Source: Azolla caroliniana (Eukaryota; Plantae; Polypodiophyta). Taken from it: a stretch of 36,573 bases of DNA. This document shows positions 123 through 36,573 of the stretch, in pieces (positions within the stretch are counted from its first letter, which is position 1; each line of letters starts with the position of its first letter). The position numbers and the translations under genes are program-made. The notes under the pieces were generated by a model. It was not told the origin of the DNA. It saw only the letters and a program-made list of their open reading frames with translations, and searched no databases. The stretch spans positions 1 through 36,573 of the forward strand of contig JBHGNT010000306.1 in NCBI GenBank assembly GCA_043228905.1. The letters are read 5' to 3'.

Positions 123-1569
123 ATCTAAAGGTGAGTGACCATGAGGATAGATGGACGTCTGTCACAATCAGTGAGAAAGAGAGAATATAAAAACATTCTT
201 AGTTCCTAATATATGTTTCTTAGAATTCTTTGCTTTTCTCAAAGACTTATCACTGCTATATGCTGATGATGTTTTACTCGTTTACAACACTCATAAGGGA
301 TTTTCAATAGCATCTATATGATCTCAATGACTGTTGATAGAGCTCTCATAGTGAATCTCGAGCAAACTAAGTTATAATGTCTAACAACTCAGTAGCATGG
401 GTCACAAAATTTGAGAATTATTTCATCTTTGGAGAAGCACTGGTTAATATGTTCATTGGTATCTTTACTTGGGCATTACCTACAAAGAGCAACAATTCTC
501 CTTGTATATGACATCAGAAGCTTAGTCATGATGCGCATATGTAGCTCTAGGACAGTAGAGAGAGAATGCATATACATATTGGGAAGGGGTAGGAACAGGA
601 TTATTGAACTGGAAAACTGATTAAACAACTAACTCACATCGATACTAAATATGGTCATTAGGATAGAGTTAGGGGAAACATCAAGGGAATGCTCTTTGTT
701 TGCCTACCTTAGTTTCTCATTTCGTTTGGTTCTAAAATGCCTGGTTTTATTATCCCACTACATGTTATAGTGATTGCTGGTCCTACTTATCATATTGTCT
801 CCCCAAAATATTTTGATATGTGAACATATCACCTCTCTTTTTCTCAACGACACTTGTAGACCTCGCCACAACTCTAAGTTAAGTTGATTTCAACCACTTA
901 CGACAAGTTTTCTTACTTCTTAGGCCAGATTAGCTTTGAGACATTAAGAATCAAATGTTAAAACAAGCCATGTAAGTAACACCATGCACAACTATATCCA
1001 ATGTATATTCAATGAAGGTCATTGACTACACTAAACTTGGATGTTTCTCGATCACCATCTCATGCACAAGGTTGAAATCCCAATTGCCAAATAAATGCCC
1101 ACTCTCTCTATTACACACCAGATTAATCACACCAGCAGATCCATACAAATTAATTGACAATACACATTATATTATTCAGACAATCTGATAATGGAAGGAG
1201 AAAAAAACGCATTGGAGAGGTAGAAGAACACTTACAGTCTTCACTGATGTTGGCTTGACAGGGCTTGAGATCATGACGACGGCTCCACACATCAGGAAGA
1301 AACACTCCAGGAAGAGGAGGAGGTGAAGAAGAAGAAGGATAAGACTTATTCAGAGGAAGCCCAAAAGCTATGGCTTCTGACGAGGCTCTAGAAGTGAAGA
1401 AAGATCGCAAAGGAAGAGGAAGCAGAAGAGGAATGCATCGACGAAGTGTTTGATTCTGAAGATGGGAAGGATGAGAGAGGAATCCTGATACGTGTGGTGG
1501 GGAGGCTATAGTTTCGAACATTCTTCTGCTCCTGTGTCTGATCCGATGGATTCTTCGCAGCAGATTCAT
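123..1569 (-). CDS. 5' exons of an unidentified gene, probably with an organellar transit peptide; gene continues beyond the left edge
   Basis: Exon 1 is 1569..1236. It is R/S/L/P-rich and acid-poor (MNLLRRIHRIRHRSRR...LRSFFTSRASS) and ends at GAAGACT|GTAAGT. Candidate exon 2 is 158..123 (pyrimidine tract + ACAG, 36 nt, YVHLSSWSLTFR, GTTAG donor) and keeps phase. Telo-boxes lie just upstream at 1655-1677. No recognisable domain in the window. Confidence 0.55.
245..580 (+). mobile_element. Degenerate LINE reverse-transcriptase fragment in intron 1 of the left gene
   Basis: LLYADDVLL (YADD at 259-270), then a VNLEQTK segment (VNLxKTK-like) and YLGIT, in the order expected for a LINE RT. Broken by stops and frameshifts. 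Confidence 0.75.
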
Positions 1570-3114: not shown

Positions 3115-6100
3115 TCAACCATCCTGTTAAAGCATCCAGCAAAAAGAATATTAGATAAATAATTAAATATGCCTTTAGTAAGTCCAAGAATGGTCTTATT
3201 TTTCTGAAATTAATTATCTGGCTGCCAATCATATAATACCTCAAATTTAAGTTTAGCATCTGGACTGAACGTTTTGCACAGGATTTCATATGAACAATCT
3301 GCCCAAACCTTCAATAAAAATGGAAGAAATATAAAAGACAACATAAAATATTTTATCAATTCATGGATGCATGCTGTGACAAAAAAATAGAGATCCTAAA
3401 AATATAAAAGAAACTGAAAGAACCAAATTTAAAAGCTAAATGACAAGATTTGCACAATATTTCTATCCATACTCATGTTTATATTCGTAACCCCTAAACT
3501 ATCACTCTCGACATCCCATACATATATTTTTGAAACAAATGTTGCTGGTGGCAATCCCTTGCTTGATATGGACGCTAAATGTGGCTGGGATGCTGAAGAC
3601 ACACGGTATTCAATAGTTTTCCAATTAAAGATGTTGTCTCGTGGACATCACTAATAACAGGATATGCAATATTCATTGTAATAGTGGACTATTTTGTATA
3701 CTGCCTTTGACCACTTTAATTTTAATACCAATGGAGGATATATTTTATTGAAAAAGAAACCAGGTTATCAATCACTTGCTATTCTATATGTCTGTCTCCC
3801 GTGTATTGGGTTTTTGTTTTGGGAAAGACAGTCAAAAACATGAATCAGAAGTGTTAAGAACTTACAATGTGTATCCGAGACAAGTGAGCAAGAAGAATCA
3901 TTGTCCTTAACCAGTTCTTCTAACATTCTAGAGAAAGCATTTTCATTTATGCATGAATTTCAGGGGAAGTGAATATACCACAGGATCCACTCTGGAGGGA
4001 GAATGATTAGAAACCTTATAACTGCAAAAGAAACACTCAAGTAAAATAAATAAAGTGGATGCAAGCCTTTATATAATGCATAAAAATTATAAACAAAAAA
4101 CTCTAAACACACTATTTATATGTTTTGGGATTCATACCTCAACTTCTATGCAAGTCTTCACGACTTGAAAGAAAAAATGCCAATGATGTAAACTATGAAC
4201 ACATACCTTTAGGTTTTCGGAATCATTACCTCAATTTACCCTTGTAGAAGTCCATAGCTCCAATATTCCTATTCTGGACAGTGAGCAATACAGCCTTCAT
4301 CGTATTCTGCAATATCGCAAAGCAGCACACAAAGAGTGGGATACTGGAATAAATTATTTTTGAAAAACTTTGCCATTGATGTAAGTCATACAAAGGACTT
4401 AAATATCAGCAAATCATACAATGCCCACACCTCTGCATGCAATGACCTCTAGCAATTGCACTAACTGAGTACATTAAAGATGGAGACTTTCCTCATAGTT
4501 ATATAAGAAACCTATATCTTTATGTAAGTCTAACAAAAAGCTTGAATTATTGTTTAACAAAGAACTTATATGTATTAGCAAGGGTTCTAGGACAAACACC
4601 TTGCATGCAATAAGCTCCAGCAATTGCATAAGGAACTTCCCCAATCCTTTTCCTTGAACACACTTTTCAAGTTGTAACTCATACACATATAAAACAGGAA
4701 AATCCTCTTCCACAACAAATCGATAGTGTACAAAGGCAACCACTGGTGACCCAAGACCTTCCTGAACACCAAGTTTTCCTCTCTTACTTGAAAGAATAAC
4801 ATCAGAATTTATATCTTTCATGATATGTTCTCTTTCATCCAGTCTTACAACAATATACAATGCATCTTCTTCTACCATCTCCCTACGCTTCACCTTCTCC
4901 TCTTTAGGCCATTCAACACCATAGGCATCCTCCATGTTGATCTGCTGAGACATCAAAAGAGGAAAATCCAAATATATATCATACAAAATTAAGATCGCAG
5001 AAAACAAATAATGGAAATCCAAATATGGGTTATAGACAGATAAATGAAAAACAAAAAAAGAACCGAAAACAAGCATGCAGACCCAAATATATGACATAGG
5101 AAAAAACCAAAAACTAAGATTATAATCATAGAATTAGTACAAGGAACCCACAGGGTGGAAAACGAGCAAGCCAAACTCATATCTCCAACAATGGCATATA
5201 TAATGAACTTAAATGTTGCTCATATACACTGCCACCTCAAAATACACATAGAATCATTTGATTTGGAGATAATCTCCTTCGATATTAAGATATGAATGCA
5301 TACATGCGTAAACATACACATACATCATGCATACATGCGTATATATGCTTGCAGAAACATTGGTCATCTATTTTTAAGAAAAAAAAAGAGAGTCCTTTAC
5401 GTGCCTTTAGAATGTCTTGAAATATTTGCTGCATAGGTTTGGAAAGCAATGGGCCAGAGGTTGATTCCAGAGTAACAGAAACACCTGAAAATCTAATCAA
5501 ATGACATTAGTGATCTCTCAAATTGGTTGATTTATTAAGTAAATGGATAGATTACAACTTGAATACATGAATTCAACTCAATGACATGAGACAATCACCC
5601 CATCACTACTAATCTTGCAATCACTAAATTCCACTCAAATACCTCATTATGAGGACCCATGCCATATCTATCAAATGTGAACTACAGCTTTCTCCTCAGG
5701 TATATGAGACAAATTACCATTACTACAAAAAATCTCACAACCACTGAATTCCACTTGGATAGTATATGAGCGATAAATGTAGTCCATTACAAGAATACAT
5801 GAATTCAACTCGATCGCATGAGACAATGATCCAATTACTACTAGTCTCCCAGCTATTACCATTACAGTCAAATTTGAAATTATGTTGAACAATACCAATC
5901 GTTACCATTACTATCAAAATTATTCTTTTGACAACCAATGAGTTCTTCTGGAATATACGAGACCTGAGCTTATGATTACAATAAAATTTGATACGATCAG
6001 AAATTCTCTCCAAATTGTCATCGAAGCTTATTATTTCACCCATTGAATATATGACAGAACTATGCTCACCATTACTGTTATATTGTATCAGCTCGGGAAC

Positions 6101-10700: not shown

Positions 10701-12898
10701 TCGTGCGACTATCAAACCCGTTCCCAGCTTGTATGTCAGTACCATTCCTAATTTTGCTATGGTCAATATAGCGAGTCCTTCAGCTCCTCGAAGAATAGTT
10801 TCTGGTATTGATTGCTCTGGTTTCAGCTTGCCAACCTGCAAAATTCACAAATCTAAATCATATATTCTTCATTTCTTAAGTTTGTTCAGGGGATAGTGCT
10901 GATATGATCAAAAAGTGGAGATATATTTTTAAATTGCATCTAATCAATCACATATAGAAATTTTCTTGCCATCACCACCTAACCATCTGTCACTTGTCAA
11001 GCCTAGAATAATTTTTGGTACCTTTTTCAAAGTGGTGTCCGATTGTGAAATGGGCACAGTTTAACAAAATCTTGAACAAAGCACATTCTCTCTCCCCATA
11101 TATTTTAAGGTAATCAACCATTTCACTTTTCCAGTTGTAATACATACCTTTGAAAAAGTTTTCACAATGTTAGTAGCTTTGTAGATTTCGTCTTGCATGC
11201 ACGAACCAAGAGGATTATTCAACCAAGCCCTCACGCAGGTGATATCCATCACATCATGAATCGCAATCTGCACCGCATTGCTGACTGAATCAATGAGAAC
11301 CTGTTGTACAGGCTCCAGTCTTTCGTAACATCCATCACAAACCCTCTGTGGATCCTTCTCCATGAATTTAGCAGGCATTAAGCATTTACCCTTTGAACAC
11401 GCATTACAAAATATTCCACCACAGAATCGGCAATGATGCCGTGCCCGTCTCAATGGTTGAAATTTTGAATTGCACTGCATACAGTTGTCACACGCACTAT
11501 CTGGAATCCATTGTGGTGGTTCCGAGTCAAGAATTGCCCTCAATGCACTTGCATCTTCTCCATTACCAGTGAGAAGTGGGGGGGCACTAGGAAAATGCAT
11601 GCTAGTCCATAAATCTTCACCACCATCTTCTACTTCTTCCAGATTGTTAGAGGACTCTCTTACTGAATGTCCAACCTGAAGATTTGGCGGTTCTAAGAAT
11701 GACCTTGTCTTTCTAGATAAAACTGCCAACGTTCCCCTCAATACATTCCGTAGATTTACCTCAGGTATCCCTGATGAGTCACCATGGCTTCCAGCCTGTA
11801 AACTTTTGTTAACCCTATCGGTAGCCTCATTGGCAGCACCTTTCAGCATCGGCTCTGACAAAATAACATTTCCTGATATGGAAGTAGGTCGCTTGCTACC
11901 AACTATTAGATTTGGATAGTGTATATATTCATCATATGAATGGGCATGTTGATTGTACCCATCTTCTTGGTTGTAAATGACACCTTCGTTGGACCTTATG
12001 TGGCTCGAAGCTGCTACTTGAAGTGCTTCTAACATCTCTTTGAAATCCAAGTTCAAACCTAGATTCAACTCGGCATCGAATGGAGTTCGGCAGAGGGGAC
12101 ATAAAGGAACAGCATTGTGTGATTGTACCTGCACAAATCAAGTCCTCTTATAGGGAGACATACATGCATGTATGATGCATCAGCTTCTGGTTCCATATGT
12201 CATCAAAGTTCAATTCATTTTACATAGTAGGTTGTGTCTGGTGCATGTATGCATGTGAGCACGAACTTTCCATCATATATGGATTCTTGATTCATGCATA
12301 ACATATGAATGCATCATAAACACCGATACAGACACACTTTCATGCATATGCCTGGGATAATATTAATTCAGAAGAACAAAATCAGCACGCATCCACCTAG
12401 TATGGTGTGTCTCTGTGTGATTGAAAGGCAGTATAAAAATTATGCATATCAAAATCATCAAAACCATATACATATAGCCAAATCGTCAAACACACGTATA
12501 TAATCAGATCATCAAAAGTATGCATATATGTATATGTCGCCAAATCATCAAAACCATATACAACACCGAATCATCAAAACCATATACAACACCAAACCAT
12601 CAAAACCATACACAATAGTAAATCGTCAGACGAATTGAGTAAAATGAGGGGGGCAACTATTTCCTACCTGTTGGAGGCACTGCAAACATCCATTGTGACC
12701 ACATGGAAGTGAGGAAGGTCCGCCATAGCTACCAAGCTTTTCCATACAGACAGCGCATGTTGGCAAATCAGGGCCTTCTATGGTATGGGTCGTCGCAGAG
12801 AACGCGGGAATCGTGGGATCGGAGGCCTTCACGAGATGGGTCGTTGCAGGACGGTATGCAGAGGAATAATTCCGGGAACCACCGAATCCCCCCTGCAT
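7766..12898 (-). CDS. RING-HC + FYVE + SYLF (Ysc84) protein, CFS1/FYVE2 family, ~594 aa
   Basis: Exons 12898-12668, 12128-11148, 10835-10635, 8952-8757 and 7941-7766 join in frame (1785 nt) with GT-AG introns. RING: CAVC..PCGH.GC.QC|..CPLC. FYVE: WIPD..C..C..RHHCRFCG..C..C..RVC..C. SYLF: GLAILT..K.G..GTGL.VAR..G.WSPP, GWGLQAGGE, G.F.GVSLEG. A PSAPP motif is also present. Confidence 0.93.
9790..10460 (-). repeat. Tandem array of five tRNA-derived SINE-like heads in intron 3 of the RING-FYVE-SYLF gene
   Basis: Core CTTACCACTAGG (+) at 9859, 9981, 10099, 10257 and 10423, which reads as A-box-like CCTAGTGGTAAG on the minus strand. B-box GGTTCAATTCC (-) occurs in two copies (~10218-10228, ~10384-10394). 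Units are separated by (AAAG)n-type runs. Confidence 0.65.
12450..12630. repeat. ~26 bp minisatellite in intron 1 of the RING-FYVE-SYLF gene
   Basis: ATCATCAAAACCATATACA-like units at about 12454, 12482, 12508, 12544, 12570, 12596 and 12621. Confidence 0.8.
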
Positions 12899-27357: not shown

Positions 27358-27759
27358 TGTGAAAAATAATGAGCAAAAAGAAGGTGTTTGTTGGCCGGTC
27401 AGAGAAGGCAAATGGGAAAGCAAGGTCGGATCGGATAAATATAGAAATAGGAATAGAATTATTAGGAGGGACGGATCCGGTAGTTGTAACCGATCCGGAT
27501 CCGAACCGATTCGGTTTCGGTTAACGGTTGCTTATCAAGCACCGATTGTAATCTGGCCGGATGCCTATAAAAGGATCCGATGTTTTGTAATGAAGGAGCG
27601 AAGAATTAATATAGTTTTGCTTATGCTGATTAATCTTGTCTTCGTCTGTGCTTAAGTGTAATTATCATACGCGTGTATTAACATCCTATCCCTACCACCC
27701 CTTTGGAGAAGTGTCGGATAGACACCTGTGTTGCGGCTAGTCCAGCCATACATACAACA
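27358..27759 (+). repeat. Putative 5' LTR (~400 bp; boundaries approximate)
   Basis: TG at 27358, TATAAAA at 27566 and CA at 27758-27759 shortly before the PBS. A CCGG/CCGA-rich inverted-repeat block spans 27471-27520. No second LTR is available to confirm the ends. Confidence 0.6.
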
Positions 27760-27765
27760 CTATTT

Positions 27766-27775
27766 TGGCGACCAC
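27766..27775 (+). promoter_or_regulatory. Primer binding site, tRNA-Arg type
   Basis: TGGCGACCAC is complementary to the ...GUGGUCGCCA-3' end of eukaryotic tRNA-Arg(UCG), recalled from memory. It lies between the LTR and the gag ATG. Confidence 0.7.
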
Positions 27776-27811
27776 GATTCCTGCAGAGTGCAGAGGACAA
27801 CCGGGGGATGG

Positions 27812-28633
27812 ATGTCTAGACAAAATAACGACCACATCACCGAAAGAGGGAGACGCCACGCCGAACGGCAGCGACGACGGGAAGCCCTGCAGCAAGCCGT
27901 CGACGAGATCCGGCGCGATCGGTCATTCTCAAAAACGCTTCGGCAAATCGCAGAAGACGCACTGCAGTTCCAGGTTCTACAAGCTTCCGACGAAGGCAGT
28001 AGCATAACCAGCCTCCAAGAAGCGGAGACACTACTACAGACTCTCGCTGGCGGCGACGGGGACGCAGCGGCATTTGCAACATTAGAGGCGGATTCGGATA
28101 GCGGGGAAAGCGTGGGATCCCGCTATAAAAGCAGCCACGAGAACAACCCCTTTGAGTCGGATCGCTCAGCAACATCGGAGCCAGAGGAGGAAATAACTCT
28201 GGAGTTCGGTGACCGGCAATCGCCGAGGAGGGAGGAGCGGATACCAACACCACCCGCGGAGGAACCGCAGGAGCGGTTATCAACACCACCCGCGGAGGAA
28301 CCGCAGGAGCGGATACCAACACCACCCGCGGAGGAACCGCAGGAGCGGTTATCAACACCACCCGCGGAGGAACCGCAGGAGCGGATACCAACACCACCTG
28401 CGGAGGAACCAGCGCAGGAGAATCAGTGGGACGACACGATGCCGTATCCATACCCAAAGTATCGGGATGAGCCCGACGGAGAGGCACATGTGTATGCATT
28501 CCTGCGAACATGGGAAGCCAACCACGTGTCCCAGAGACTGACGGAGCCCGAGGCCGACCGATCCAAAGTCGCCGAATTCGGCATGACATTAGAAGGACCG
28601 GCGGCCCGGTGGCACGAACGTTCGAGGCATTGA
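27812..28633 (+). CDS. gag: Gag N-terminal part, frameshifted from the rest of gag-pol near 28617
   Basis: First ATG after the PBS that opens a long frame (MSRQNN...). Capsid-type segment ..HVYAFL.TWEAN..FGMTLEGPAARWH, continuing in another frame as TFEALKTQFLRLF..Q.ENE.V..F..RF. Confidence 0.85.
   Translation: MSRQNNDHITERGRRHAERQRRREALQQAVDEIRRDRSFSKTLRQIAEDALQFQVLQASDEGSSITSLQEAETLLQTLAGGDGDAAAFATLEADSDSGESVGSRYKSSHENNPFESDRSATSEPEEEITLEFGDRQSPRREERIPTPPAEEPQERLSTPPAEEPQERIPTPPAEEPQERLSTPPAEEPQERIPTPPAEEPAQENQWDDTMPYPYPKYRDEPDGEAHVYAFLRTWEANHVSQRLTEPEADRSKVAEFGMTLEGPAARWHERSRH
28235..28414 (+). repeat. 36 bp x 5 coding tandem repeat in gag (ER[IP/LS]TPPAEEPQ)
   Basis: Units at 28235, 28271, 28307, 28343 and 28379, alternating IP/LS variants. 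Confidence 0.95.
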
Positions 28634-31600
28634 AAACCCAGTTTTTACGCTTGTTTCATAGACGAGTGGAACAAAGGGAATTGGTCGGACAATTCTACAC
28701 CACTCGGCAGGGAGAAAACGAGATGGTCCCACAATTTATCATTCGTTTCCAGACCTTGCACAGTCAATTAGCAAGAGCACCACCCGAAGAGGAGGCCAAG
28801 GCAGTCTTTTTGGCTGCGTTAAAAGACCCACTTCGAGCGATGTGTGGAATCCTCGATTTCAGCACCAGCACAATGGACCAAGTCATTGATCGGGTCCTGG
28901 AAATGGACAACACGAGCTCCTTCTTGCCGATGGGGGCGTTACACCAGGCGCTTCCGAAGGAGGAGGACCTCCGGTTCCGACAAGCCCTACAATGCACAAC
29001 ATGCCTAAATTCGGGGCACTCGACCGTTGACTGCACCCTGCGCGCACAGTGCATGATATGCAATTCTCGCGCCCACACAACGAACCAATGCGAGTATAAC
29101 CTGTTAACTCGACAAGCGGCACCGGTCCGACACATAGAACCGCGCAATCGGGACCCGGAAGAGGATCGATTCCGGAGGGACGACCGCTACCGACGAGAAC
29201 GCGGCGACAGATACCCCGACAGAAGACGCGACAGCTATGACCGAGAGGAGAACCGAAGGGATAGCTACCCCCGGGACCGGTACGACCGAGACGAATCCCC
29301 GGAATACGAGCGACGCAGAGAAGAAAGGCGGCCAGGGAACCGGAATTTCCGACGGAACCAAAGGCGTGGATTCTTCCGTAGAGAGGAGCGTCGGGAGGCA
29401 ACAAGGAATGACAAACCAGTAGCGGCACCGGAGAACCAAAAAACTGAGGACAACCGCCGGGGAATGCCCCTTCCCCAAACATGGGAAAAAGGAGAATCCA
29501 GCAACACGCACAGGGTGTACTGTTATTACTGCCGAAAAGAAGGGCATTACAGTAATCAATGCCCAAGCAAAACAGCCGACAAGCAGCCAGCAGTCAACAT
29601 GGTAACAGCCGAAGTACAGCAGGTTACCACGCGGTCGAAAGGGAAGGCCGCCGAATGGGAAGCCCAGGAAGCAATCAGAAAACAAGCGGCACAATGGATC
29701 AAAGAAGCCAACGAACAAGGTGCGGCGGAAGTAAGAAACCAAAATATGCCAAGGGAGGAGGAAATCGTACAGCCAGGAGAAAACCCGACATGGCAAGCAC
29801 TACAAGATTGTCAGATCGTGCTGCCGTTGGCACGGTTACTACAGTTGGTGCCGCGGTTTACAGCAGACTTACAAGCCGCCGTGAGCAAACCAACGCCGAC
29901 GCCGGCACCGGCATTTTTCTCCAACCCGGAGGAAGCCCCAGCGGTGGTTGATACCAGTAGCCCAGCAATCACGACAATCGTCAAAGGAAAGGAGATTCCA
30001 GGAACAATTATTGACGGAGGCTCCGGGGTGAACGTCATTAGTCGACAGACATGCGACGACCTAGGCATCCAGGAGTGGGAACCATGCCCCTTCTGGTTAC
30101 GCATGGCGGATATAAGCTCAGTCCGACCAACGGGTCTTATCCGGGACTTGGAAGTAACAATAGGAGGCCACGTATTCCGAATATCGGCCGTGGTACTAGA
30201 GCTGAATGTACAAGGCGCATATCCCCTACTGTTAGGACGACCATGGCTGCGAACGGCGCATATCAAGCAAAACTGGCAAAAGAATATGATCACGTTCCGA
30301 CGAGGGAAAACAAAGGTACGGGTAGCCACGCAACCACGGGTGCTCACTAGCAAGGAGGCAACCCCTTTATATGCCGAAAGCATCAACATGTTGGAGGGCT
30401 TACCGGATGAGGAAGTTGATCGGTACCTCGAGGAACACCCACAGATCGTCCCACTTTTTGAGGTGGATATCACGGCAGCAGTAGAGCCGTACATCACAAT
30501 GCCGGACGAGCCGGACAAAGTGGCGATCCGGGAACTACGCCAAGCACAGGAAGCCCTAGAAAGAGAAATGACGATATCCCAAAGGGTGAAAGCATCCCAG
30601 CTGGAAGAGGTGGACCTCGGCACAACAGAACAACCCCGACCGGTAAAAGTCGCGAAGGAATTGCCGAAGGAGGAAAAACAGGCAATGGTAGCACTGTTAA
30701 CGGATTTTAAGGACGTGTTCGCATGGTCATACGAAGACATGCGAGGGTTGGACCCCCAGCTCTACCAGCACCAAATTCATCTAAGTACTGACGCGAAACC
30801 CATCGCTCAACGTCGGTACCGGATGAATCCAAACTATGCGGCAAAGGTGAAGGAGGAAATTGACAAGCTTCTCCGGGTCGGATTTATCCGACCAGTCAAG
30901 CAAGCAACCTGGCTAAGCCCGATAGTGGTGGTCCCGAAAAAGAACGGCAAAATCCGGGTATGTGTGGACTACAGGAAACTAAATGCCGCGACAGTGACCG
31001 ACGCTTTTCCACTACCATTCACGGACGGAGTGCTAGATGCGGTGGCCGGCCACGAAGTTTACAGCTTCCTGGACGGATTCAGCGGCTACAACCAAATCCG
31101 AATGAACCCGGCCGACCAAGAGAAAACAGCGTTCGTGACGGAATGGGGAGTGTTCGTCGCGGTCGTGATGATGTTCGGATTAAAGACAGCCCCTGCAACA
31201 TTTCAAAGGATAATTATGGAAATCTTCGGTGATTTTATTCCCGGTTTTATGCAGGTCTTCCTAGACGATTTCGCCGTCTACAGCCGACACGGAGAGCATC
31301 TCGATCACCTACGACTATGCTTAGAAAAGTGCCGCGAGTACCGATTAAGTCTGAACCCGGCTAAGTGCGTCTTTGGAGTCGCAAGCGGCAACTTGTTAGG
31401 CCACGTGGTGAGTCGGGAAGGAATCGCGGTAGATCCGGATAAGGTAAAAGCAATTCTCGACGCACCGGCACCGAATAGCGCAAAGGCTTTAAGCCGATTC
31501 CTTGGTCAAATAAGGTGGCATAGTCGGATGATACGGCACCTTGCCGACTTTGCTACACCATTGCACGCTGCTGTACATAGAGTACCTTTCCAATGGACAG

Positions 31601-33519
31601 AAACGGAGGAGAAAGCCTACCAAGCGTTGAAGGTAATGCTGTCACAAGCTCCGGTGGTGCAGCCGCCGGACTGGAGTAAAAGCTTTCACGTCTTCGTCGA
31701 CGCGTCGGACGTAGCAATCGGCAGCGTTTTGATGCAACTCACGGAACCGAACTGGTATCGGCCGGTGTACTACGCAAGCAGGAAACTCTCGAAAGCCGAA
31801 CGGAACTACTCTACAACGGAACGAGAGGCATTAGGAATGGTGTACAGTGTCACAAAGTACAGGCACTATCTGCTCGGACGAAAGTTCTCCTTTCACGTTG
31901 ACCACTCGGCACTACTCTACCTGGTCTCAAAGGCAGCCCTGACAGGAAAACTCGCACGGTGGACGCTGCTATTACAGGAATTCGAATTCGACATTTTCCA
32001 CCGACCCGGGGTGCAGCATGCGGTAGTAGACTACCTGAGCAGACTAGAATCCGGAGAATCAGGGGACGGCGTACAGGACGAATTTCCCGACGCCGAGCTG
32101 TTTAAGGTCACGACGGCACCGGCAACGGAGACCACAGTAGCGGACGAAGACAAATGGTTAACCGAAATGCATCAGTTCCTGAGCACCGGAGTTCCCCCGG
32201 AAAACCTGGACCGAGACGAACGGAAAAGGATGGCAGTACGGGCAGATGGCGTATGGAGGCGAGCAGTGCGGAGCGATGAAAAGGATCTGATCCTGAGGGA
32301 AGCCCACTGTGGAATTGCAGGCGGGCATTATGCCGGCGAAACAACAGCCCGGAAGATATGGCAGAGCGGACTATGGTGGCCGACTACCATGAGAGATGCC
32401 GTTAAGTATAGCAGGGAATGTGACCTGTGTCAACGACTGGGCCAACCCACGGAGCAGGCCCGGATGCCACATCACCCGGTCTTGCCATTAGAACCATTCC
32501 AAAAGTGGGGCTTGGACTTTGTTGGCCCCTTTAAGCCACCGGCAATGCGGACCGGAAATCGGTATATAATAGTGGCTACCGACTACTGCACCAAATGGGT
32601 AGAAGCAAAGGCACTACGGGACAACACGGCGGCGTCCACGGCCAAATTTTTATATGAATGCCTATGGTGTCGGTACGGATGCCCGATTGAGCTGATCAGT
32701 GACCAGGGAGGACATTTTCTCGGGCAGGTGGTGGAAAGTTTGACCTCATTCTATGCGGTAGTACACAAACGAAGCACTCCCTACTACCCTCAAGCCAACG
32801 GATTAGCGGAATCAACGAATAAAACGCTACAGAACATCCTTAGAAAAATCGTCAATGAGAACCGGACCGACTGGGACACGAAGTTGCAGAGCGTGCTGTG
32901 GGCGTACCGAACGGCGTACAAGACTAGCATCCGGACGACCCCGTTCCGACTGGCATTCGGCTTGGAAGCAGTCATGCCAGTAGAATTCCAAATTCCTAGC
33001 TTAAGAATACAGGTTAAGGAGCGGTTAAGCGAGAAGGAATCGGAACGAATCCGGCTGAAGATGCTGTTAGAACTGGAAGAAAATCGAATAGCCAGCCTGC
33101 TACAGCTAGAACTAGAGCAAAGGAGGAGGAAAGCCTTTGTAGACCGACACCGCCGCGGTAACGAAAAGGAATTCGAGGTCGGGAAACCTGTATTACTGTT
33201 CCAGACAAGGATGGGGAGCATGCCAGGGAAATTGCGATTTCGGTGGACCGGACCATTCTGGATCACAAAGGAGTACAATGGGTCTTACCAGCTCGGGACG
33301 TTGTCAGGAGAAGTTGTGGGCAAATGGGCAAATGGTTTTCGCCTAAAACCGTATAAGGGGCACATGCCAGCTAACCCCTTCAAGCAAGAACCGGACATCC
33401 TGAATGGCGAGGAACCGACACAGATACGGAGGACCGAGGAGCCGACACCGACGCGTAACAACGAGGAACCGACAACAGTGCGCACCGACCCGAACACATC
33501 GGGGGGAACCGAACAATGA
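28618..33519 (+). CDS. pol: Gag C-terminus + Pol polyprotein (3 zinc knuckles, protease, RT, RNase H, integrase)
   Basis: CCHC knuckles at 28993, 29050 and 29521. Protease IIDGGSGVN (D at 30013). RT SPIVVVPKK..RVCVDYRKLN, LDGFSGYNQI, FLDD (31258). RNase H VDAS..YYASRKL..NYSTTERE. Integrase H..GH..C..C, WGLDFVGP, ISDQG, YPQANG.AE, and a GPF motif. Confidence 0.95.
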   Translation, partial: TFEALKTQFLRLFHRRVEQRELVGQFYTTRQGENEMVPQFIIRFQTLHSQLARAPPEEEAKAVFLAALKDPLRAMCGILDFSTSTMDQVIDRVLEMDNTSSFLPMGALHQALPKEEDLRFRQALQCTTCLNSGHSTVDCTLRAQCMICNSRAHTTNQCEYNLLTRQAAPVRHIEPRNRDPEEDRFRRDDRYRRERGDRYPDRRRDSYDREENRRDSYPRDRYDRDESPEYERRREERRPGNRNFRRNQRRGFFRREERREATRNDKPVAAPENQKTEDNRRGMPLPQTWEKGESSNTHRVYCYYCRKEGHYSNQCPSKTADKQPAVNMVTAEVQQVTTRSKGKAAEWEAQEAIRKQAAQWIKEANEQGAAEVRNQNMPREEEIVQPGENPTWQALQDCQIVLPLARLLQLVPRFTADLQAAVSKPTPTPAPAFFSNPEEAPAVVDTSSPAITTIVKGKEIPGTIIDGGSGVNVISRQTCDDLGIQEWEPCPFWLRMADISSVRPTGLIRDLEVTIGGHVFRISAVVLELNVQGAYPLLLGRPWLRTAHIKQNWQKNMITFRRGKTKVRVATQPRVLTSKEATPLYAESINMLEGLPDEEVDRYLEEHPQIVPLFEVDITAAVEPYITMPDEPDKVAIRELRQAQEALEREMTISQRVKASQLEEVDLGTTEQPRPVKVAKELPKEEKQAMVALLTDFKDVFAWSYEDMRGLDPQLYQHQIHLSTDAKPIAQRRYRMNPNYAAKVKEEIDKLLRVGFIRPVKQATWLSPIVVVPKKNGKIRVCVDYRKLNAATVTDAFPLPFTDGVLDAVAGHEVYSFLDGFSGYNQIRMNPADQEKTAFVTEWGVFVAVVMMFGLKTAPATFQRIIMEIFGDFIPGFMQVFLDDFAVYSRHGEHLDHLRLCLEKCREYRLSLNPAKCVFGVASGNLLGHVVSREGIAVDPDKVKAILDAPAPNSAKALSRFLGQIRWHSRMIRHLADFATPLHAAVHRVPFQWTETEEKAYQALKVMLSQAPVVQPPDWSKSFHVFVDASDVAIGSVLMQLTEPNWYRPVYYASRKLSKAERNYSTTEREALGMVYSVTKYRHYLLGRKFSFHVDHSALLYLVSKAALTGKLARWTLLLQEFEFDIFHRPGVQHAVVDYLSRLESGESGDGVQDEFPDAELFKVTTAPATETTVADEDKWLTEMHQFLSTGVPPENLDRDERKRMAVRADGVWRRAVRSDEKDLILREAHCGIAGGHYAGETTARKIWQSGLWWPTTMRDAVKYSRECDLCQRLGQPTEQARMPHHPVLPLEPFQKWGLDFVGPFKPPAMRTGNRYIIVATDYCTKWVEAKALRDNTAASTAKFLYECLWCRYGCPIELISDQGGHFLGQVVESLTSFYAVVHKRSTPYYPQANGLAESTNKTLQNILRKIVNENRTDWDTKLQSVLWAYRTAYKTSIRTTPFRLAFGLEAVMPVEFQIPSLRIQVKERLSEKESERIRLKMLLELEENRIASLLQLELEQRRRKAFVDRHRRGNEKEFEVGKPVLLFQTRMGSMPGKLRFRWTGPFWITKEYNGSYQLGTLSGEVVGKWANGFRLKPYKGHMPANPFKQEPDILNGEEPTQIRRTEEPTPTRNNEEPTTVRTDPNTSGGTEQ

Positions 33520-33793
33520 TGCGGCATATGTTTAAAAAAAAAAAAAAAAAAGAATGACGTGGAGCTACAGGTAGAAAAGTCAAGACAAGAAGATCAAGAA
33601 AATCATGGTAATGATGAAGGAAGTAGTTACAACCGTCACACGGGTGCACGAGCTATTTAAAGCACAGAACGTGGGGGCGCCGATGTACAGGATTTAAAAC
33701 GCGCGTCAATTAAGGAGTCATAATGACAGACACGTAGGAGATTCGACACACGCGGCAAAGAAGCGCAAGCATGACACGCGGCAGCAAAGGACA

Positions 33794-33970
33794 GACATAC
33801 TATTCATGACACAGCATGCGCAGGCGCCAAAAATAGGACATGCTATTCATGACAGAGCATGCGCAGGCGCCAAAAATAGGACATGCTATTCAAGGCAGAA
33901 CACGTGCAGCCGTCAAAATTAAAGAGTGACATGCTAATTATGGCAGGGGACGCGCGAAAAACAGGAAAAG
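33794..33970 (+). repeat. 43 bp tandem array (~4 units) between pol and the extra ORF
   Basis: GACAT(A/G)CTA(T/A)T starts at 33794, 33837, 33880 and 33928. The first two units are nearly identical. Confidence 0.9.
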
Positions 33971-33990
33971 GCGGCTCGAGGGAAACGCCA

Positions 33991-34000
33991 CTATATAAAG
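33991..34000 (+). promoter_or_regulatory. Candidate internal TATA box for the extra ORF
   Basis: CTATATAAAG ~140 nt upstream of ATG 34135, followed ~25-30 nt later by a pyrimidine-rich TTCACTTTT initiator-like stretch. Confidence 0.6.
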
Positions 34001-34134
34001 GAAGAACCGGGGAAGGGTTCACTTTTTACGAATTTTCCCACAAGCAAACGCAGGCTCAAGACAGCAAGATCCGACGCGCAGAACACCTACACCCCGACCT
34101 CAGACCACAGGCAGCAGCAGACGAAGAAGAAGCG

Positions 34135-36573
34135 ATGGCACTGTCGGACGGAGCGCGACAATGGCTGACGGAGAACGGATTAGGAGGGCTGCTGCGGGTC
34201 GCTGACGCTCCACCACACAAGGAACCAGAGCAGGCGGCAACAGCGGTGGACTTAGCAGAGGTCACTGAAGGAGCGGTACAAGCGCTCACAGGGATTTCGG
34301 AGGGAGGACTTCAGACGATAGAGCTACCCTCGAGCCAAATATTCTTCGAGTATTTCGGCGAATACTCCCTTAGCAGCAAGGCGTATCGCACACAGGGCGG
34401 AGAGAACCTGCTGTTCGGAGAGGTGGCCCGCGCCCTGATGGAGTACGGGTTCGTGAACCCTCGTCCGGCAGCCATAGCCAAATACCGAGCAGCGATCGTC
34501 ATCGCGACATTCGAAGGCCTGCAGGTGGACTGGCTCCATTTCATTACCGAAGGACTGAAAGAGGCGATCAAGCACTTAGTGGAAGGGAAGAAGCCATGGG
34601 CCGGAATATCCCAATGGTTAACAGTGTTGGTCCCACCGGTGTCCCCCATCAAGCACAAGCAAAGAAGTCGGCAGGAGACTACCCCGAAGCAAACCATGAA
34701 GCGCCGACGAATCCTAGAGAAACACACTCCAGGATGGACACAGGAAGAAGAAGCGCCGCGGGAAGAAGGATCATCCCGACAGCCGCGGAAAGAAGGCTCA
34801 TCTCGACAATCGCGGGAAGAAGACTCATCCCGACAGCAAAGGGAGGAAGGCCCATCATGGCAGCCACAGAAACAGCAACAGCAACCGACAACGAAGAAGA
34901 AAAAGGCGGAAAAAGGCAAGGAGAAGCTGGCAAAGAAGACCAGCAAGAGGCAAACCGACACCGAACCAGTAACGCTCGAATCGGAACCGGTACCAGTAAA
35001 GGAACCAATAGTGGCACCGACGGAGGACGCTGAAACAGAGGAAGACTCATCCGAACCGATGTTAATACTACCACCCAGGCAAGGAAAGGAGAAACGAGCG
35101 ACAAGACCGACCCCAACAGCGGACGGAACTCAGCAAAGGGCAAAAGAACCGCCTCCAGTAACCGGAACAGAAGCGACACAGGATGAAGGTCCGTCTGCAG
35201 CAAAGACGGCAGTACCGGAACCGACGGCGGCGGAGTTCGAGGAACAAAGAAAGGAACAAGCGCCGGAACAAGAGAAGAGGCCGGAGAAACAGCCGGAAAA
35301 ACAGCCGGAGCTAGGCACGCCTGCTGACACCAACGAAGGCAGAACAAAGGCACAATGGCTAAGGTGGTTGTCAGGGCAGTTGTCGGGAGTAGCAGACCAG
35401 ATGGAGAAAGAGGAGGAGCAAAGAGAAGAAGTGACTAGGACGATGACTAAGGATATGGTCAGGCTCCGGGCACAATTACATGAGCTGCAAGAAGAGCTAG
35501 CACAGGCAAAAGAAGGCAGCCGACAAGCACAAGATGGCACCGAGCCGGTCGGGACATCAGAAAAGCAAGCCGAACCAGAAACGGAGAGGGCCTTGCAAAC
35601 CGGCCCTGAGACCGAGAAGTTAATAGCAACTTTGAAAGAAGAATTACAGGCTCAGGAGGCATTGAGAGATAACGAAAGAGAACAGCGGAAGTTGGTAGAA
35701 GACGACAGACGGCGAATGGAGGAAGGCCTTCGCCGAAGCAAAGCCACCAATGACCGACTACAAGAAGAAAACGGGACACTGCAAAAGGAAAAAGATAGGC
35801 TGCGCCGACGAATGGAGCAGGAAATTGAGCGGTTGCGAGAGGAACTCCGACAACAAAAGGACCGGGATGATCAGTTGCGAGCTCAGGCGAACCGACGCCT
35901 AAAACAGAAGACGGAGGAATTCGACAGACTATGTAAGGATTATAAACAGGCCACGTCGGACATCAAGAATCAGGCAGCAACGTACGACCGACAGATAGAG
36001 AAGCTGAAAGAGCAGCTCAAGGAAAACCGCTTGGAATTGTCCAAAGCAAGGGAGGAAGTATCGGCGGAGAAGACCTTGACGTCGGAACAAAGAAAGGAGA
36101 TGGAAGTACTTCGGCAGAAAGTAGGGGAGCTGACAAAGAGCAGGAATGAGGAGAAAGTGAAGTTGACTTTCGAAATCAACAAATGGCGGAGTACCTGTGA
36201 CAAGCAAAAAGTCGACTCTGAAGCTCAAGCTCAGTTAATGGCCGACATCATCAAACGGATAAGGAAGGAAAAACAAGCAGCTTCGGAACAGGCTAAAGCA
36301 GGGGTTGGCCGAATTAAGTTCATCATGTCAAGTTGGAGTACCCGAGCTCAGGCCAGCATAAATGAAAGCACGGAGAAACTCTGGAAGGAATGGGCACAAC
36401 AGGCAGCTGAACTGCAGATACTCCGAGCTGATGCAGAAAATCGGAAGAAAAACGGAGATGGGTTCTATAAAATGGACGAAGAAAGTATCGTCAACATCCG
36501 GGAAGAACTGTCGGAGGATTTCTATGCTCTAGCAGAAGAGCATCTCAAGGAAATCCGAGGGTTAGTAGAGAGG
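34135..36573 (+). CDS. Retrotransposon accessory ORF, >=813 aa: PMD-like N-terminal domain, charged linker, long coiled coil; open at the window end
   Basis: Translated by hand: no stop from ATG 34135 (GCGATGGC context) to 36573. An in-frame ATG also exists at 33883. It begins MALSDGARQWLTENGLGGLLRV and ends ..EEHLKEIRGLVER. It is absent from the ORF track because no stop codon lies in the window. Confidence 0.9.
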   Translation, partial: MALSDGARQWLTENGLGGLLRVADAPPHKEPEQAATAVDLAEVTEGAVQALTGISEGGLQTIELPSSQIFFEYFGEYSLSSKAYRTQGGENLLFGEVARALMEYGFVNPRPAAIAKYRAAIVIATFEGLQVDWLHFITEGLKEAIKHLVEGKKPWAGISQWLTVLVPPVSPIKHKQRSRQETTPKQTMKRRRILEKHTPGWTQEEEAPREEGSSRQPRKEGSSRQSREEDSSRQQREEGPSWQPQKQQQQPTTKKKKAEKGKEKLAKKTSKRQTDTEPVTLESEPVPVKEPIVAPTEDAETEEDSSEPMLILPPRQGKEKRATRPTPTADGTQQRAKEPPPVTGTEATQDEGPSAAKTAVPEPTAAEFEEQRKEQAPEQEKRPEKQPEKQPELGTPADTNEGRTKAQWLRWLSGQLSGVADQMEKEEEQREEVTRTMTKDMVRLRAQLHELQEELAQAKEGSRQAQDGTEPVGTSEKQAEPETERALQTGPETEKLIATLKEELQAQEALRDNEREQRKLVEDDRRRMEEGLRRSKATNDRLQEENGTLQKEKDRLRRRMEQEIERLREELRQQKDRDDQLRAQANRRLKQKTEEFDRLCKDYKQATSDIKNQAATYDRQIEKLKEQLKENRLELSKAREEVSAEKTLTSEQRKEMEVLRQKVGELTKSRNEEKVKLTFEINKWRSTCDKQKVDSEAQAQLMADIIKRIRKEKQAASEQAKAGVGRIKFIMSSWSTRAQASINESTEKLWKEWAQQAAELQILRADAENRKKNGDGFYKMDEESIVNIREELSEDFYALAEEHLKEIRGLVER

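Follow-up and report, generated by a model that had tools for sequence, protein, structure and literature searches.

The question raised by this locus is whether the long open reading frame (ORF) that follows the pol region of a fern retrotransposon is a gene of the element and what its product could do. The locus lies in a 36,573-nucleotide stretch of Azolla caroliniana DNA (contig JBHGNT010000306.1, hereafter the window), in which a Ty3/gypsy element with long terminal repeats (LTRs) carries the extra ORF at 34135..36573; all positions are on the forward strand unless indicated. An earlier interpretation made from the letters alone (the sequence-only reading) had described a large accessory gene with a domain resembling the plant mobile domain (PMD). 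We have found that the gene belongs to the element and is under purifying selection, and its N-terminal domain is predicted to have a VANC21/PMD-like fold.

The frame is free of stops from 33880 to 36573, and reading from the ATG at 34135 gives 813 codons that run off the window end (966-1018 in intact siblings). The other five frames contain 12-42 stops each, and the longest open run in 1000 base shuffles was 230 codons, in agreement with the earlier claim of at least 813 sense codons without a stop after pol; all the motifs quoted with that claim are present in the ORF. A list of closed ORFs would miss it, since no stop is reached within the window.

A scan of metagenome contigs yielded 68 loci from 108 candidate stretches; these loci stem from few assemblies and do not count as independent samples. 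The pol of the same family was found upstream on the same strand in 15 of the 33 loci of at least 2 kb; the others had too little upstream sequence or were fused to unrelated stretches. When 21 loci were translated from the start codon, seven ran for 966-1018 codons to an end of the LLDILEED type, one stopped just before that end, two ran off the contig and 11 stopped early (one of these was read from an out-of-frame start). The 3' LTR begins ∼50 nt past the LLDILEED-type end in 11 loci, and sequencing runs of four organisms cover all bins of the extra gene. With pol upstream and the 3' LTR downstream, the gene sits within the element, as had been proposed, and not in a nested one or beyond the 3' LTR.

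The ratio of nonsynonymous to synonymous substitutions (dN/dS) was obtained from Nei-Gojobori counts of the window against eight siblings, so that all pairs share the window as reference. It was 0.06-0.12 in the N-terminal domain (amino acids 1-168), 0.26-0.37 in the linker that follows, 0.24-0.28 in the helix at 401-455 (six of eight pairs unsaturated), 0.16-0.27 in the coiled coil and 0.03-0.19 in amino acids 741-813 (five of eight pairs unsaturated); reverse transcriptase (RT), RNase H and integrase gave 0.01-0.04 with three siblings. All regions of the extra gene are far below 1, and it is therefore under purifying selection, as the sequence-only reading supposed. Moreover, the N-terminal domain is unbroken in 21 of 23 high-depth contigs versus 11 of 45 low-depth contigs. 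High-depth contigs likely represent many recent copies and low-depth contigs old single copies, and this is the pattern of a gene required in replicating lineages.

The ATG at 34135 is retained in 50 of the 51 rows compared. An in-frame ATG at 33940 would add 65 amino acids, and these upstream codons are open in frame in 76%, versus 20% and 51% in the other frames, with a dN/dS of 0.35-1.0 (14 pairs), so that a longer protein might start at 33940. The spacer between pol and the ORF (33520..34134) is predicted to hold a TATA-type internal promoter. It contains an A-run, TATTTAAA (33654), three repeats of 43 nt (33794-33922) and TATATAAA (33992), which is followed 29 nt downstream by an initiator-like sequence (TCACTTT, 34019). 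The TATATAAA and initiator-like sequences would favour a transcript using ATG 34135, although the TATATAAA site reads TACAAAA in most subfamilies. The spacer repeats measure 42-48 nt; in several siblings they preserve the frame and so extend it ahead of the ORF by units that contain Met, whereas the 43-nt repeats of the window are out of frame (33794-33940).

Protein architecture and predicted fold

The best structural match of the model of the N-terminal helical domain (34135..34638) was VANC21 (PDB 9LNK), which covered 163 of ∼170 residues and exceeded the second-ranked chain by 3.2-3.5 Z units in each of the two structure searches. Among the structure matches listed, VANC21 was also the only solved accessory protein of a plant transposon; its sequence identity to the domain is 6-8%. 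According to this model, the domain is predicted to have a VANC21/PMD-like fold. The PMD-like domain proposed earlier is thus retained as a predicted fold, through VANC21, and not as a sequence match, since PF10536 gave no match at E≤1 with the window protein and in none of 101 members at E≤0.1; the link to PMD would run via the VANC21 match and the published homology between VANC and MAIN. DUF1985 and DUF287 profiles matched neither the window protein nor the family members, and PF20167 and PF03078 had no match among the members. The family carries no Pfam name and can rightly be called uncharacterised, and its nearest named clusters by language-model features are Transposase_32 and ATHILA ORF1 (0.81-0.86, values below 0.9 being a lead only).

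Among 50%-identity representatives, the domain has 174 relatives at E≤0.001, of which the best 150 were considered and 100 of these aligned. Their identity reaches down to ∼25-30%, nearly all are fragments among the matches listed, and none of the 10 that were looked up has an informative name. The conserved residues include W10, H28, FGEYS..KAY.T (74-86), K116, R118, EG...DW (127-133) and K152.

The rest of the protein follows the three-part layout suggested previously (globular N terminus, basic linker and coiled coil), except that the last ∼75 amino acids in the window (741-813) are not plain coiled coil and open a further conserved block. The disordered linker (amino acids 169-400, 34639..35334) is basic, with NLS-like (nuclear localization signal) KRRR at 189-192 (34699-34710), KKKK at 254-257 (34894-34905) and four 9-amino-acid repeats with a DNA period of 27 nt (34757-34866). 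An amphipathic helix (401-455) and a long predicted coiled coil (490-740) occupy 35335..36354 with a periodicity of ∼3.5-3.6, the heptad pattern being clear at 405-460 and 490-600 and weaker further on. The second block (741 to ∼830, starting in the window at 36355..36573) reads W..W...AAEL...RAD.ENR...G..FYK, and in siblings it continues beyond the window end into an acidic tail ending in LLDILEED. The full-length relatives P0161, P0162 and P0284 (38% identity) keep the N-terminal domain, basic linker, coiled coil, C-terminal block and acidic LDILE end. The second block is better conserved than the N-terminal domain, with 43-44% identity in full-length relatives (44% versus 38% in P0161).

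Possible functions of the extra protein

We consider it about evenly balanced whether the product is a nuclear factor that, by means of its VANC/PMD-type domain, binds its own element and keeps the copies transcribable against host silencing. The gene would be driven by its own TATA-type spacer promoter and the basic linker would import the protein into the nucleus, where the N-terminal domain would recognise short motifs clustered in the non-coding parts of the element. Oligomerisation through the coiled coil could make this binding multivalent, and the C-terminal block with its acidic LLDILEED tail might attract a host factor for demethylation, anti-Polycomb activity or transcription. The conservation of K or R at positions 82, 116, 118 and 152 (79-96%) speaks for DNA binding. 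As for the possible targets, CGGATC occurs seven times (both strands) in the window LTR, a number that none of 500 resamples reached, and this CpG-rich CGGATC/GATCCG cluster lies at 27430-27580, upstream of the LTR TATA box. The cluster and the spacer repeats are candidate targets of the domain; no motif strongly common to the LTR and the spacer repeats was found. The window member is acidic (pI 5.0; family range 4.9-9.8), and this charge would count against DNA binding. CGGATC is present 2-7 times across six diverged LTRs, so that a VANC-like turnover of motifs is unsupported.

A rather unlikely explanation is that the VANC21 match reflects a common helical arrangement and that the domain has an unrelated fold; the protein would then act as a particle or RNA scaffold, oligomerising by its coiled coil. 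Against this stand the extent of the match over the domain, its lead over the second-ranked chain in either search, its coincidence with the only solved plant-transposon accessory protein listed and the NLS-like basic stretch retained in the relatives.

It is also unlikely that the same fold does another job, tethering the pre-integration complex to chromatin or steering insertion in place of the missing chromodomain. The integrase has no chromodomain, a DNA-binding-like head followed by a long coiled coil and a conserved C-terminal block would fit such a tether, and the window copy is close to host genes. However, the sole solved relative of the fold is an anti-silencer, and the gene is apparently a separate transcription unit which is not fused to integrase.

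An env-like protein for cell-to-cell spread is very improbable, in spite of the coiled coil and of the sense orientation of an ORF in the env position. This explanation fails because none of 11 proteins (the window protein and 10 full-length relatives) has a membrane-like hydrophobic segment (best 19-residue Kyte-Doolittle mean 0.96-1.31), and their C terminus is acidic; the absence of a transmembrane stretch and of env character claimed for the part in the window therefore extends to the full-length proteins. Finally, a neutral or nested sequence, open owing to the low T content of an A-rich strand, is refuted by the dN/dS values and the fixed place before the 3' LTR, as well as disfavoured by the shuffles and the 174 relatives, and its probability is practically negligible.

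The carrier element and its priming sites

The element is a non-chromovirus Ty3/gypsy LTR retrotransposon, with gag, protease, RT, RNase H and integrase in this order, LTRs and a tRNA primer-binding site. Its 5' LTR (TGTTG...CAACA, 371 bp) is located at 27389..27759, and in siblings this sequence recurs downstream of the ORF. The primer-binding site, TGGCGACCAC (27766..27775), lies 6 nt past the LTR and likely corresponds to tRNA-Arg, the matching tRNA end being that of tRNA-Arg at five of eight viral loci. The primer site begins 6-7 nt past the LTR, a wider spacing than the 0-5 nt applied in PMC6317226, and a small conserved hairpin comes after it (window 27760-27800), as after the 3' site.

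A first gag frame (27722..28633) is separated by a frameshifting deletion near 28617 from the rest of gag and pol (28471..33519; gag, zinc knuckle, protease, RT, RNase H and integrase). Other copies hold 25 extra bases near 28617, and comparison with L004 and L010 shows an in-frame loss of 15 codons near 32241, which substantiates the lesion noticed previously in gag-pol. The long acidic N terminus of gag contains five 36-nt tandem repeats (28233-28412; 12 amino acids of the ERIPTPPAEEPQ type). A Pfam scan of gag-pol revealed no chromodomain or second RNase H. Membership in Tat/Ogre/Retand was rejected, as there is a single RNase H region and the Tat clade is defined in PMC6317226 by an additional RNase H; the same source describes Phygy and Selgy as short and without extra ORFs.

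The sequence-only reading expected a polypurine tract (PPT) downstream of the ORF, and this expectation failed in the siblings, where the longest purine run is 4-6 within 60 nt of the 3' LTR (12 junctions, 11 loci). Instead, they have a near-invariant copy of a tRNA 3' half, composed of a T-arm with a hairpin insert, the acceptor strand and a CCA end two bases before the 3' LTR, which amounts to a further primer site, located on the minus strand. This tRNA-Arg-like half is at L002:3820-3867, ∼520 nt past the window end, and at the same place in L001, L005, L007, L009, L012, L014, L015, L017, L039 and L051. Without its inner hairpin it matches tRNA-Arg(TCT) genes, at one of one locus and then at two of four (one of them on the same contig). 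The half likely primes the plus strand. We found no description in the literature of such tRNA-type plus-strand priming; Helenus elements, as described in PMC10886601, have a tRNA-like sequence inside the LTR and keep the PPT, whereas in the siblings of the fern element it lies before the LTR and there is no PPT.

Two other insertions or fragments were observed among the siblings. In a subfamily of 53% identity, the spacer has received an unrelated Ty3/gypsy element that has a purine tract of its own and a 1.3-kb LTR (L039:1-3746), and a relative of the ORF with 50% identity is preceded by gag fragments in the opposite orientation (L041:71-1395). The window also contains a host FYVE zinc-finger gene (11061-12137, reverse strand), whose best named relatives are from Adiantum (69-71%) and Ceratopteris (68%); named flowering plants and lycophytes reach 61% or less, which makes a fern the likely host. 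A further host exon (4474-5133, reverse strand) weakly resembles a GNAT acetyltransferase.

Comparison with known systems and significance

VANC21 is reported to bind a short motif, present in tandem repeats of the non-coding parts of its element, and to remove methylation (PMC5735166, Hosaka 2017); its structure paper (doi 10.1266/ggs.25-00096) is mentioned in PMC12859917. Its carrier VANDAL21 is a eudicot Mutator-like DNA transposon and not an LTR retrotransposon, and the fern domain, known from sequence and model, is ∼60 residues shorter and N-terminal, without a DUF1985 or DUF287 match. In PMC13547354, VANC is described as structurally homologous to MAIN, derived from it and dicot-specific. 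PMD-C is said to resemble the DUF1985 of VANC, and an anti-Polycomb role is proposed for transposon PMDs (bioRxiv 10.1101/2024.09.27.615353).

The Gypsy-encoded PMD-A1/A2 share PF10536 with the host proteins MAIN, MAIL1 and MAIL2. PMD-A is likewise an extra ORF of a Gypsy element and likely belongs, via VANC, to the same fold superfamily. However, Gypsy-encoded PMD-A is described across angiosperms (PMC5418596, Ikeda 2017) and in 57% of Ogre elements (PMC5418596; PMC6317226, Neumann 2019), and the fern element lacks the extra RNase H. Extra 3' ORFs without an assigned function are reported as common in plant retrotransposons (PMC7264820, PMC11728184, PMC11963269). A sunflower Athila resembles the fern element in carrying a sense 3' ORF, for which Transposase_32 and a predicted NLS are reported (PMC11728184), but the C-terminal block and tail of the fern ORF have no match in Transposase_32 (PF20167) or ATHILA ORF1 (PF03078). 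Retand/ATLANTYS TRP28 (PF04195) and maize Grande gene23 are described as conserved accessory ORFs between pol and the 3' LTR with predicted DNA binding and a globular plus long-helix layout, as here, and gene23 as nuclear with its own promoter; they are antisense and described for flowering plants, while the fern ORF is sense and without a PF04195 match. Within the literature covered, which did not extend to subscription journals and supplements, we found no description of a VANC/PMD-fold ORF in a fern retrotransposon.

A selected, Pfam-invisible gene with this predicted fold would place it on a mobile element outside flowering plants. Tentatively, and with less than even chances, this could be the first sequence-specific anti-silencer of VANC/PMD fold in an LTR element; the fold would then predate flowering plants and have been on retrotransposons before MAIN and VANC, and Transposase_32, ATHILA ORF1, PMD and DUF1985 would form one superfamily of element-encoded DNA-binding regulators. 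The domain is compact (170 residues), the 371-bp LTR bears a cluster of candidate motifs, and the many diverged subfamilies would allow binding specificities to be compared; if it acts like VANC, the protein would also be a small sequence-specific epigenome tool. The finding bears on the origin of PMD, from a Gypsy element or from a host gene, a question called fully open in PMC5418596 and also addressed in PMC13547354, and on the role played by extra ORFs, of which plant retrotransposons contain thousands (PMC7264820, PMC11728184).
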